DNA of 64,000 bases from Squalus acanthias. Its lineage: Eukaryota. Below are positions 12,628 to 55,714 of this stretch, piece by piece. The stretch is from NCBI GenBank assembly GCA_030390025.1, contig CM059434.1, positions 10,602,001-10,666,000 of the forward strand, in the 5' to 3' direction. Numbering within the stretch: the stretch's first letter is position 1; each line of letters opens with the position of its first letter. The notes under the pieces were generated by a model, which ran no database searches, was not told where the DNA came from, and was given only the letters and a program-made list of their open reading frames with translations. Made by a program: the position numbers and the translations under genes.

Positions 12628-12968
12628 TCTCATCTCCCTCATTCTCATTCTCCCCCTCTCTCTCTCTCTCACTCACACATTCACTCTCACTCTCTCACTC
12701 ACACATTCACTCTCACTCTCTCACCCTCACTCACTCTCACACATTCACTCTCACTCGCTCACCCTCACTCACTCTCACACATTCACTCTCACTCTCTCAC
12801 CCTCACTCTCTCTTTCACTCCTCTCTCTCGCTCTCACTTTCACTCTCACTTTCTCTCTCACTCCCACTCACTCTCTCACTCCCACTCCTCTCTCTCTCTC
12901 ACTCCCACTCCTTTCTCTCTCTCTCACTCCCACTCTCTCTCTCACTCTCCTCTCACTTTCTCTCCCCC
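12628..12968. repeat. (CT/CA)-rich low-complexity tract filling most of intron 8
   Basis: About 340 nt of CTCACT/CTCT units, almost no G on the + strand. Confidence 0.9.
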
Positions 12969-21758: not shown

Positions 21759-22326
21759 TTAAATATCTTGCCGCTCTTAAAGTGATCAGTTTGAATGTTG
21801 AAATGCACATATGCGCGCGATTAATCCCCTACTAAACTAATGTTAAACAGACAAGAATTATGGTTATCTAATCGATACTAATTGATCTATGAAATGCATT
21901 TCATATGAAGCACTAGGGTAGTTCAGTCTCGACTGAATGCTGATAGGTGAAGTATATAGGTGAAGGTTTGACAATATATGCGTTCATCTGCATTCATATC
22001 AATAAGCGGCGCAAAATGAAATCAATCACAAAATCGGGTTTAATTAATACATATGAATTGACACAAAGTTGTGACTGGGTCTACACCAAGTGATTGCGCG
22101 CGTTGCACTGTTAAATAGTGAACAGCCAGCTTTTCACACTCCTCCAATAATCACTACCAAATCCAGGAGTAATCTTTCAAATCATCACTGCAACCAGGAT
22201 TACAACATCATCATATTATCGCTGGATTTAAACAAATTCGCTTCATATCACTGCATATTTATCCATCGAAGAAAGATGGCAATATTTATTTAAACTCCGT
22301 CTTAAATGGCCATAATCTATGAGTTA

Positions 22327-22770
<444 letters not shown>

Positions 22771-22904
22771 CTACATGTATATATATATAAAAAAAAAGGA
22801 AAGCACATACATCAAAAAAAGTTTTACAAATAAAATGGCTCTTTTTGTTTGATAATATATATTTATACAGGTATATAAATATAGTTAAACAATGGTGAGC
22901 TTAC

Positions 22905-22946
22905 TTTTCGATTATCCACTACTTGGACTTTTGCATCAGCATGGGT
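22905..22946 (-). CDS. pax6: Pax6 alternative exon 5a (THADAKVQVVDNRK)
   Basis: 42 nt, tgtag|ACC...AAA|gtaagc; matches the 14-aa 5a insert (human THADAKVQVLDNQN). Confidence 0.96.
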
Positions 22947-23067
22947 CTACAATACAAAAATATACCTTAAATGGCAATGGGAAACGGACCAATATTGCAT
23001 CGATTTCAAGAGAATTTCAGGCGCGTGCCAAAGTTATTTTTAAAAAAAAGTTTCAAACTTAATTTTT

Positions 23068-23159
23068 TTTTGCATCAACATTGGGTCTACAATACAAAAA
23101 TAAACCCTTAAATGGCAGGGGGAAATCTTACCATTTCTCAATCATTTCAAGATAATTTC
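23068..23159 (-). repeat. Degenerate tandem duplicate of the exon-5a acceptor region (pseudo-exon 5a')
   Basis: Aligns to 22929-23018 at about 140 nt offset; identical 21-mer TGGGTCTACAATACAAAAATA at 22942 and 23082. Confidence 0.88.
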
Positions 23160-23316
23160 TTGCTTTTTTCTTGCCAATTGTGAAAGAAATTACTTTGAAG
23201 GTACGAATGCAATTTTTAGGAAGCATTTTTGGATTGTAGAAAACCCCTTCTAGAAAATGTTTCAATAAGCTGATTGCATATGCAATAGTAACACTGTGAC
23301 ATCTTGCATGCGTTTA

Positions 23317-23577
<261 letters not shown>

Positions 23578-24099
23578 TCACAGCGCCCGTCCTTAATCCC
23601 GCCGGAGATCCCAATTGCAAAAAAAAAACTGACCTATAAACGCGCTCTCTTGCTCTAAACACGAAAACTGCCAATCAAAAACAGAATACCTTACGAGCAA
23701 CGAAAGCGTCGGTGTGCTAACAAATCCTCTAACCGAAAGAAACGCAACAGACCACTCAACCTGGACATTGCATTAAACCAGAGAAAGCCAACACAAGCAA
23801 GATTTTCACTAAATTGAACGAGAGAGCGCCTAATCAAGCAACTAACAATTCCTCTTAAACTGACAATGCAAACTCAACTGGATCCAAGATTACAAATGAC
23901 ACATTATCTTCCCGAAATTACAACAGATGCCCCAATGCACCAAAACAAGCCATTTTTTTGCGTTATTAAAAAAAACACCCAGAGAAGGGACAGTAATTGT
24001 AAGCGTATGGAGACTCCTAACCTGAAACTCAGGCTGGTAACCGTGTCCCTGGAGGAAGCTCCCGGCTTATGGAGAGAACCTGTTCTCCTCTCCCTAGGA

Positions 24100-24370
24100 G
24101 CGCCTGCTAAATTGGCTCCACAAAGCCCAGCCACTTAGCCATAAATAAGCTCCGAATATAGCAGGGGAGGCAAACTGATGAGGCTTGCTGACATTTGTCT
24201 CGAAAATCAAGCTAGCTGCACGTCAACTTTGAGCTTAATTTCTAGAAATAAGCGGAAGTCTCCCTGGATAGTGCACGGAAGGATAATTGAAAAGATCAGT
24301 CCCAAACACTTGTGGCAGGCATGTCACTTTATGACACTGTTCCACTTTGAAAATCGCATCGTCACGACAA
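24100..24370 (-). promoter_or_regulatory. Pax6 alpha (neuroretina, intron 4) enhancer / P-alpha region
   Basis: Minus strand GACTTCCGCTTATTTCTAGAAATTAAGCTCAAAGTTGACGTGCAGCTAG...GACAAATGTCAG closely matches the amniote alpha enhancer as I recall it. Confidence 0.8.
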
Positions 24371-31251: not shown

Positions 31252-31356
31252 TAGTGTGTGTAAAAGTTTTATCGCAGGATTCGGTGAAATAACACCAAGT
31301 GAGTGGCCAATGGTGTTATTTCACCGAATCCTGCGATAAAACTTTTATACACACTA
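31252..31356. repeat. 46-bp inverted repeat with a 13-nt spacer (palindromic, MITE-like)
   Basis: Arms 31252-31297 and 31311-31356 with one mismatch (G31260/T31348); TA-rich flanks. Confidence 0.93.
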
Positions 31357-39910: not shown

Positions 39911-40193
39911 NNNNNNNNNNNNNNNNNNNNNNNNNNNNNNNNNNNNNNNNNNNNNNNNNNNNNNNNNNNNNNNNNNNNNNNNNNNNNNNNNNNNNNNNNN
40001 NNNNNNNNNNNNNNNNNNNNNNNNNNNNNNNNNNNNNNNNNNNNNNNNNNNNNNNNNNNNNNNNNNNNNNNNNNNNNNNNNNNNNNNNNNNNNNNNNNNN
40101 NNNNNNNNNNNNNNNNNNNNNNNNNNNNNNNNNNNNNNNNNNNNNNNNNNNNNNNNNNNNNNNNNNNNNNNNNNNNNNNNNNNNNNNNNNNNN
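39911..40193. other. Assembly gap (283 N)
   Basis: N run next to a CA/TA microsatellite. Confidence 1.
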
Positions 40194-46775: not shown

Positions 46776-47628
46776 CTGGAGACCAAATAAACCAATGTAC
46801 TATTGACCTCAGGGTAACTTCAAGAATGTGTTGGGCTTCAATGCAAGAAAGCCTCAGGTTCAGTTGATGTCCCTGGTGTATTGTAGATGTCTAATAGTAC
46901 ATGCTCAACCATCTGAAGAGCAAAGAGTAACCGTACCCCGTCCTCAAGAGCATTCTGTCATTTTCTTTAGATTAAACCGAATGCAACTTATAATGGTAGT
47001 TGGATTTAAGAAAAGTTTAAACATTTTTTTGAATTATGATTTTACTCGGAGCTAGTCAGATGCACCAAGCAGCATTCCGATGCACAGTTGGGTACAGATG
47101 TGGTTTTTCCTGCTCTTATGCATGAACATCGAGGGCTAGAGTACAGACAGGACCTCACTGTAACTGTGAAAATCCAATAAAGAAAACAAAATCAATAAAA
47201 TCAATTCAGTTTGTTCCGCGGGCAGAACATTCGAGATTGACTACTTGGAAATCGTTTCGTGGTCACAACTATATCACTGGTGAAGATTTGCAGTGGAATG
47301 CTGGTAAATGCAATGCCTCCATATTATAAGAGTATAGAAGCACAGGAGAAATGGCAATTTTTTTTTTACAAGAATGATACCAGAACTGAGAGGGCAGAAC
47401 TATCTGACTGAACAGAATGGGACTCTTTTCTCTAGAAAAGAGATCATAATCTTAGAAGTTTGATTTGATTGTCGACCTTATCAACCAGACATTGAATTGG
47501 AGCTTTTTACACTCTCCTGTGGGTATGCCTACAATGTTTTAAAACGTTAGATGTATATTTTGAGTTGCTGGTTGTGATGGCGGTGAGTTACACTGCATGA
47601 ATTAAATGTATATAGAACCTTGCTAAGA

Positions 47629-48172
47629 TCACACTTGGAGTACTGTGCACAGGTCTTGTCTCCATATTACATAAAGGATATAGAGGCACTGGAGAAAGTG
47701 CAAAAAGGATAAACAAAGATGATACCGGAACTGAGAGGATATAATTAGCAGGAAAGATCGAACAGGCTGGGGCTCTTTTCTAGAAAAGAGAAGGCTGAGG
47801 GGTGACCTGATAGAGGTCTTTAAAATGATGAAGGGGTTTGATAGGGTAGAAGTAGAGAAGATGTTTCCACTTGGGGCCATCAATATAAGAGAGTCACTAA
47901 TAAACCCAATGAGGAATTCAGGAGAAACTTCTTTACTCAGAGAGTGGTGAGAATGTGGAACTTGCTTGGAGTAGTTGAGGCGAATACCATAGATGCATTT
48001 AAGGGGAAGCTAGATAAACACATGAGGGAGAAAGGGATAAAGGATATCTCGATAGTGTGAGATGAAGAACATAGAATGGCCGGAGGCTCCTGTGGTGCAT
48101 AAACACCGGCACAGGCCAGTTGGGCCGAATGGCCTGTTTCTGTGGTGTAAATTCTAGGTAATTCTATGTAAC
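47629..48172 (+). mobile_element. CR1-clade LINE 3' fragment
   Basis: Degenerate HLEYCAQ...RRLRGDLIEVFKMMKGFD...FFTQRVVRMWN followed by the GGGCCGAATGGCCTGTTTCTGTG tail. Confidence 0.85.
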
Positions 48173-54357: not shown

Positions 54358-55714
54358 ATTCTTTTAGAGTTAGGGTAGGAGCAACCATACTCTCAAACAC
54401 ACACAAAAAAATCTCAGCTGCATATTGGAGCTAGATTGGGAACTAACTCTGGCCTGACCTGAGTTATACTGTCACTCTTAGTTGCGGTGAAGATGAAGCC
54501 ACTTTGTAATGTTGCAAAACTGATATCGTAACGGCACTCTTTGTGTCTTTGGGAATCAGATTGCCAACCTCACTCCAGAGGTATATTGCCACTTTCATAT
54601 CAGGAGACATTCAAGACCACTTTGTATCATTGCAAAAGTGGCTATATAACTTCAGCCTAAGACACAATAGTGGATAATAGGGAGAGCATGGTGAATATCA
54701 CCTGAAAGTCAGAATTGGGTTGTGGCTTTCAAGTATTATTAATTCTGTATTATACTAGCAGATCACTTATGGCACTGCTCATAGTTATACTGCTGTATGG
54801 AAAGGGTACTGGCTGTGAATCTGGAGGAGGGTTTCACTTCTCCACTGAAAGAATTTGGAAAGAAGCTTGCAAGAGAGGTCCTCAGAAACAGTGCAGCATT
54901 TTTCATTCTTACACGGAAAATAAATAGTGTTTTCCTTACTCGCTGCAGATAGATAGATAAATCCTAGTAACATAAATAAATCTCTGCGCATAATATGGGG
55001 AGCAGCCCTATCACCCTTCTGGTGCACTCCCAGTCCATCTCCCGTGGGAGAAAGGGCCAAAAGTTGGCGAGGATTGAGATATGCTGGGTCCCAGCCTATA
55101 TTGGGCATTTGTGCTGGGCTTTGTTAGTGGGGGGAGCCCCTGCCTGGCCATTACAGGGCCACTGTTGCAAAGGGGATAGAACCAGGAATTCCCTAAGTCA
55201 GGTGTACCTGCTCGCCGGCCTTCAGCTAAGCACTGGCATATGATTGGCACAGATACACGTGGTCCCACCAGGCATACCTGACCAATCCAACAGAAGAGAG
55301 ACCCATCCCAGGCTCCAGGCCAATGTTTGGGTCTGGACTTCCAAAGACAAGTAGCCCAAAAAACAATTGGTGGGAATTGAAGAAGCCCCTTTGTAAGAGG
55401 CCCACTCAGGCACGCAAAAAGATTTAATGGTGCGGGTGGGGGGTCGGTGGGGGGGGGGGTACCCAGACTCACCTCCCGCCCCAAACCCCCACACGCCTGC
55501 CCAGCCACCTACTGGACTGGTTGGGGGAGCCACAAAGGTGTCCTCACACCACGGAAGGTCCGCTCCTGAAGACTCAACCCCTGACCCATGAACTTCAGCA
55601 GGGCTGAAGACAGAGTTCTGCAGTGGTCCCAATCCTGGTGATTTTCTAGGCCTTTTTTTCCCCCTTATTTGCATTTTTTCATTCTTTACCAAATATCTCT
55701 GCCACCGCAATTTG

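Follow-up and report, generated by a model that had tools for sequence, protein, structure and literature searches.

Intron 5 of the Pax6 gene in the window, by which we mean the whole 64,000-nt stretch of DNA analysed here, carries a partial tandem copy of the acceptor region of exon 5a and, further upstream, an antisense arm complementary to both acceptor units. We propose, while holding the idea somewhat short of probable, that the copy is an RNA structural decoy that would draw the blocking arm off the real 5a acceptor. The first-pass annotation of this DNA had read the duplicate as a candidate poison or decoy splice site. Its list of elements proved incomplete, as the arm (23184–23243, minus strand) had been missed, and the arm quite possibly adds a mechanism, the structural decoy, that is distinct from and more specific than a poison acceptor.

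The setting is an intact Pax6 gene on the minus strand, in which an ATG-bearing exon 4 is followed by exons 5, 5a and 6 and by exons 7–13 down to position ~8420. Exon 5 (23377–23507, minus strand; 131 nt) codes for the paired domain's N-terminal portion, has its GT donor next to it at 23376, and is the same size as vertebrate Pax6 exon 5 (131 bp; PMC4488758). Exon 5a (22905–22946, minus strand; 42 nt) encodes the same 14 residues as annotated shark Pax6 5a isoforms, the peptide being identical in Heterodontus, Mustelus, Heptranchias and Scyliorhinus, and exon 6 (22555–22770, minus strand) spans 216 nt. The layout is that of canonical Pax6.1: the paired-domain exons, 131 and 216 nt long, flank an exon 5a within the usual 36–42 nt, and homeodomain and PST exons follow exon 6. 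While the 131/42/216 exon sizes and the 5a peptide agree with annotated shark Pax6, the duplicated acceptor and the antisense arm are undescribed in the available text of PMC3554528 and PMC4488758. The exon 7 peptide shows 100% identity to named shark Pax6 proteins, and exons 11–12, compared by eye, agree with the Pristiophorus protein P0011 where the other compared sharks differ, which suggests a squalomorph shark.

Exon 5a is known from sharks, skate and chimaera and probably originated in jawed vertebrates (PMC4488758, PMC3554528); the Pax6:Pax6(5a) ratio shifts during brain and retina development, and the targets of the two isoforms differ (PMC3285655). The words “intron” and “structure” do not occur in the accessible part of PMC1182360, which deals with the developmentally regulated isoform ratio. 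Besides the canonical form, human PAX6 minigenes yield exon 6-shortened, 5a and exon 5-skipped products, and an upstream 5a acceptor is absent among those given in the accessible portions of that work (PMC9863980, PMC11936725). A full-text literature search, covering mostly titles and the starts of abstracts and subscription journals thinly, returned no duplicated 5a acceptor or RNA structure at Pax6 exon 5a.

The duplicate itself (23068–23159, minus strand) comprises ~73 intronic nt, the AG and 19 exon-like nt, with weaker similarity reaching 23177, and corresponds to an original unit (22929–23018, minus strand) made up of the end of intron 5, the real 5a AG (22948–22947) and the start of exon 5a. 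Aligned from 23159–23068 against 23018–22929, the two differ at 16 of 93 columns (83% identity), the copy lying 140 nt upstream, in agreement with the ~90-nt duplication at 140 nt described at first pass, all of whose coordinates were correct on recheck. Local alignment of ~110 nt of copy and original scored 111; among 1000 dinucleotide shuffles the mean was 31 ± 5 and the highest score 57. A search of the 3.7-Gb genome matched the duplicated region at a single locus, which rules out extra copies elsewhere. Such short-range duplications are nothing unusual in this genome: besides the present one, 14 non-satellite places carry direct ones of similar size in 263.6 kb (31 rows, reducing to 2 satellites and 15 other places with this one counted). 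Two more diverged short-range direct duplications in the window, at 47294–47791 and 54458–54640, were counted as background. Folding predicts that the beginning of exon 5a pairs with its own pyrimidine tract (22922–22972; −10.7 kcal/mol), and the end of the duplicate coincides exactly with the end of this self-pairing segment.

A 21-nt acceptor core across the AG (−16 to +5) is identical between copy and original. The first reading, an identical acceptor between diverged flanks, was thus correct as to the core, but the contrast it drew depends on the null model: differences between the units number 4/50 in the core versus 12/43 upstream (Fisher P = 0.011), but under a fairer half-rate null, with only the copy free to change in the core and 7 differences expected, P = 0.15. 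Beyond its AG (23088–23087) the copy reads ACC CAA TGT TGA (feature 23075–23088, minus strand), the stop lying at 23077–23075. If the copy acceptor were used together with the 5a donor (23086 to 22905), the exon would, as previously noted, be 182 nt long and meet a stop at its fourth codon. This premature stop falls after protein residue 50 and 170 nt ahead of the 5a/6 junction, with seven more junctions downstream. The copy is truncated, frame-shifted and, as also noted earlier, without a donor of its own. The donor-like ATG/GTAAGA inside it (23126–23134, minus strand; GT at 23131–23130) lies where first reported, but upstream of the copy AG with a 45-nt gap, which rules it out as the copy’s own donor; folding prediction places it mostly within a local hairpin, as the 5′ arm (unpaired 0.26).

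The antisense arm has a 16-nt core, here called E (23225–23240, minus strand), which is reverse-complementary at 15 of 16 positions to −15 to +1 of both acceptors, so that its complementarity spans the pyrimidine tract and the AG of each. From E the arm extends to ~23184 with further pairing to both units. Complementarity at E with at most one mismatch in 16 nt arose in none of 3000 shuffles of the upstream intron, and a comparable partner within 300 nt was present at 3 of 1980 acceptor-like sites (261.7 kb) and at none of nine other Pax6 acceptors. Over the whole arm, the antisense alignment, covering ~55 nt of both units, was matched by 6 and 15 of 2000 shuffles. Predicted duplex energies with the arm were −18.8 kcal/mol for the copy, −17.7 for the real acceptor and −5.5 for the exon 6 acceptor. 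An equally strong duplex occurred at 4 of 306 AT-matched sites, and an acceptor core at least 0.9 paired at 1 of 40 comparison sites; without composition matching, raw duplex energies of some other Pax6 acceptors were as low (−25.9, −29.7). The columns facing the arm differ less between the units than the remainder (2/26 versus 14/67), but not significantly (P = 0.11), and with no effect upstream. Rfam covariance models, run over positions 22300–24300, gave no matches at E-values up to 1.

Comparison with relatives, which the first-pass annotation had named as a check, drew on four of 23 listed runs. Three of these carry the whole stretch in one contig: X15, X17 and X18, corresponding to organisms F, G and H, from studies P8 and P9. 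The fourth, X1, presumed to be RNA, yielded no contig over exons 5, 5a or 6 of this gene, a gap that proves nothing either way. The copy is present in one contig in each of the three, and misassembly of the duplicate, raised as a concern at first pass, is ruled out by these single-contig spans from two studies. Eight letters separate F and G from the window, and these two are uninformative on constraint. H differs by 37 substituted letters and 30 gap letters, of which 30 substitutions and eight indels could be placed; 7 of the 37 substitutions and one 2-nt indel are unplaced and probably lie near the ends of the aligned piece. Since the two units differ by 17% and the window and H by only 6–7%, the duplication predates the split between the latter.

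In H, the most distant of the three relatives, the copy has changed more slowly than the rest of the intron. In this one comparison, with 8 differences unplaced, it carries 0 listed changes in 93 nt, where 5.7 would be expected, versus 31 in 506 of other intron (Poisson P = 0.003; Fisher P = 0.005; substitutions only, P = 0.015), although with a wider 111-nt boundary two changes fall within it. The original intronic unit likewise has 0/85 listed changes (P = 0.005), and the arm has 1/60, which is not significant alone (P = 0.12). Changes came at background rate in the spacer (3/35) and in the loop (2/22), and 6 of 82 synonymous sites changed. That the copy lags behind spacer and loop suggests purifying selection on it, and the feature is common to the relatives and probably constrained. 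The single arm change falls at a position predicted to be unpaired in both of the folding states described below; none falls in the E helix, and no compensatory changes in that helix were seen in H, again in one comparison. Low change extends over a block at 23287–22848, with six listed events in 440 nt, including the 44 nt above the arm. The acceptor pattern gave no matches in metagenome contigs, and among the best 80 of 272 exon-6 loci from metagenomes no 5a-bearing outgroup was found; against the intron the same loci gave only low-complexity or 15–42-nt matches.

On the structural-decoy reading, the arm would mask whichever acceptor it pairs with, and only one at a time. It would fold onto the copy first, since the copy is transcribed 140 nt earlier than the real site. 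In this state A, with the copy masked and the real acceptor under its weaker local hairpin only, exon 5a would be included. Strand exchange through the identical core could then shift the arm to the real acceptor, giving a state B in which that acceptor is masked and 5a skipped, while the copy closes its own 8-bp hairpin. The effect on splicing that we infer is therefore that pairing of the arm with the copy frees the real acceptor and raises 5a inclusion; the arm might also keep the frame-shifting copy itself from being spliced. The balance of A and B, and hence the Pax6:Pax6(5a) ratio, may be set by elongation rate, temperature or RNA-binding proteins. In origin, one arm of an older acceptor-masking stem, the 3′ arm, would have been duplicated, a route of the kind proposed in PMC6071210.

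Both states, and the balance between them, are folding predictions. For the 175-nt stretch from arm to copy the fold has z = −2.39, matched by 3 of 200 shuffles, and for the whole intron z = −2.07, matched by 1 of 20. E is predicted to be ~0.9 paired in every native folding window, and its pairing with the copy to stay at 0.95–0.97 until the real acceptor is transcribed. At 37 °C equilibrium the preferred partner of E is the real acceptor in 25 of 30 folding windows and the copy in the remaining 5. Folding at 10 °C gives 0.36:0.62 and 0.58:0.40, near parity of the two states, and the constrained ensembles lie 0.5–2.2 kcal/mol apart with a sign that varies. Because the 37 °C equilibrium favours the real acceptor, a decoy effect would need kinetic trapping, cooler temperature or proteins. 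With the repeat unit removed in silico, the predicted opening cost of the real acceptor was 10.6 kcal/mol, up from 7.6; removing E instead lowered it to 6.2, and removal of the arm brought that of the copy down from 6.0 to 3.7. Seven constitutive Pax6 acceptors cover 4.6–12.7 kcal/mol, so the measure is not discriminating. The local hairpins are predicted at −10.7 kcal/mol for the real acceptor, which uses the start of exon 5a, and −9.6 for the copy. The copy hairpin is built with two copy-specific differences just upstream, whose direction of change is unpolarised.

A stronger version of the structural decoy, which we regard as doubtful though a serious candidate, holds that in sharks the Pax6:Pax6(5a) ratio is set by a protein-free co-transcriptional strand-exchange switch, with the dead acceptor duplicate serving as an anti-antisense decoy. 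A truncated duplicate of an exon would then be retained purely to titrate an RNA structure, in a gene that is a vertebrate master regulator. If it is true, inclusion should be sensitive to elongation rate or water temperature.

Other explanations account for parts of the same evidence. The duplicate could be a neutral relic of a complex local duplication that left direct and inverted acceptor copies, the inverted arm happening to silence a harmful copy without any switch. The abundance of short-range duplications (14 others in 263.6 kb) fits such an origin, as does an arm running antisense to ~55 nt of each unit, the pattern of an inverted copy; template-switch correction of near-palindromes can make inverted repeats perfect. 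The excess identity of the acceptors is, moreover, not significant under the half-rate null, and conservation comes from one pairwise comparison with eight differences unplaced. The absence of listed changes in the copy against 5.7 expected, next to a spacer and loop at background rate, and the retention in both lineages of a copy older than the window–H split lead us to consider neutrality rather unlikely. The same low rate could instead reflect protein-binding splicing elements (enhancers or silencers) or a DNA-level enhancer, for which the copy would be kept independently of its AG and of pairing. Low change does extend over the whole 23287–22848 block, including the 44 nt above the arm, and introns beside conserved cassette exons are often conserved. 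Introns 4 and 7 of Pax6 also house enhancers (PMC3554528), and work with human minigenes led to the inference that regulatory elements lie around exon 5 (PMC11936725). This explanation is nevertheless decidedly unlikely, as it does not account for a core that is antisense at 15 of 16 positions and centred on the AG, and the accessible text of PMC3554528 contains neither the term “intron 5” nor mention of an enhancer there.

The constraint on the copy in H would also suit the poison or spliceosomal decoy acceptor envisaged at first pass, in which the copy AG is spliced to the exon 5 donor and yields a 182-nt exon whose early stop leads to degradation, or binds U2AF/U2 unproductively in competition with the real acceptor of 5a. 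Its −16 to +5 region is identical to that of the real acceptor and it lies nearer the donor (290- versus 430-nt intron). The stop, 170 nt before the next junction and followed by seven further ones, sits farther than 50 nt ahead of a later junction, as in poison exons, and the copy changes less than the intronic background (0/93 versus 31/506, in one comparison with 8 differences unplaced). In state B, after full transcription, the copy is also predicted to be easier to open (6.0 kcal/mol) than the real site (7.6). Its AG, however, is predicted to be paired in both states (unpaired ≤0.04), by E first and then by the −9.6 kcal/mol hairpin, and the antisense arm is left unexplained by this reading alone. 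The stop also falls at nt 151 from the ATG, and decay may be weak for stops near the ATG. None of 242 proteins searched is a short called product ending in the predicted poison tail, a weak blank that we do not count as evidence. Shark isoforms of 355–400 aa are ruled out as products of the copy, as they stem from alternative donors of exon 6, and two paired-less shark isoforms (286 and 221 aa) could not be linked to it. Taken by itself, a poison acceptor is in our view unlikely. It and the other alternatives are not fully exclusive of the structural decoy; silencing of the copy, for example, may be the main reason why the arm persists.

The structural decoy resembles several known systems without coinciding with any. 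Like the docking-site/selector arrangements of Dscam1, 14-3-3 and Mhc (PMC6071210, PMC10790352), it has one upstream arm complementary to two tandem duplicates, with a single pairing possible at a time and an origin by tandem duplication at an exon boundary. One arm thus faces the at least two tandem duplicates of such systems, and the pairings are, by prediction, mutually exclusive and similarly stable (the same 16 nt of E; −18.8 versus −17.7 kcal/mol; ensembles within 2.2 kcal/mol). In contrast to those systems, which have at least two complete alternative exons with one entering each mRNA, the Pax6 copy keeps only 19 exon-like nt; the pairing covers the acceptor itself and, by prediction, blocks the neighbouring exon instead of activating it, and the outcome would be inclusion or skipping of a cassette. 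As it lacks a second complete exon and its pairing covers the AG, we do not assign the Pax6 arrangement to this class. With the splice-site-masking hairpins of tau exon 10, SMN2 exon 7 and cTNT exon 5 (PMC10790352) it shares a helix over a splice signal, which there lowers inclusion, but the Pax6 arm lies 140–280 nt away and has a second, duplicated target that could titrate it.

Poison exons subject to nonsense-mediated decay are similar in that the copy acceptor would give an early stop in a dosage-sensitive regulator and lies in constrained sequence; they differ in that the copy would serve as an alternative 3′ extension to exon 5a rather than as a cassette, with an AG predicted to be masked. 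Decoy sites and exons, such as caspase-2 In100 and the erythroblast decoy exons, are reportedly non-productive acceptor-like elements that alter a neighbouring exon. Those decoys act on spliceosome components, whereas the Pax6 decoy, as proposed, would act on an RNA arm. If the proposal is true, the region would constitute a compact 350-nt switch of Pax6:Pax6(5a). It would also be a naturally occurring example, from a vertebrate, of the route outlined in PMC6071210, in which one stem arm is duplicated, here lacking a second functional exon. The acceptor-masking arm may then predate the duplicate and could be present in other jawed vertebrates, including in human PAX6.

Several minor features of the gene and its surroundings were also recorded. 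Exon 6 contains two internal donors (15-nt and 108-nt forms) used by annotated shark and ray Pax6 isoforms (P0011–P0017, P0098, P0099, P0105, P0106); because such events are also reported in human minigenes (PMC9863980, PMC11936725), they are common to jawed vertebrates. A 330-nt degenerate microsatellite (12633–12964), purine-rich on the gene strand, begins just past the donor and occupies most of Pax6 intron 8. The window holds a single run of 283 N (39911–40193), far from the exon 5a region. In the 5′ region of Pax6 lies a near-perfect inverted repeat (31252–31356), its 46-nt arms 98% complementary around a 13-nt loop; it could have come from a small inverted duplication or a transposon, or be an artefact of assembly.
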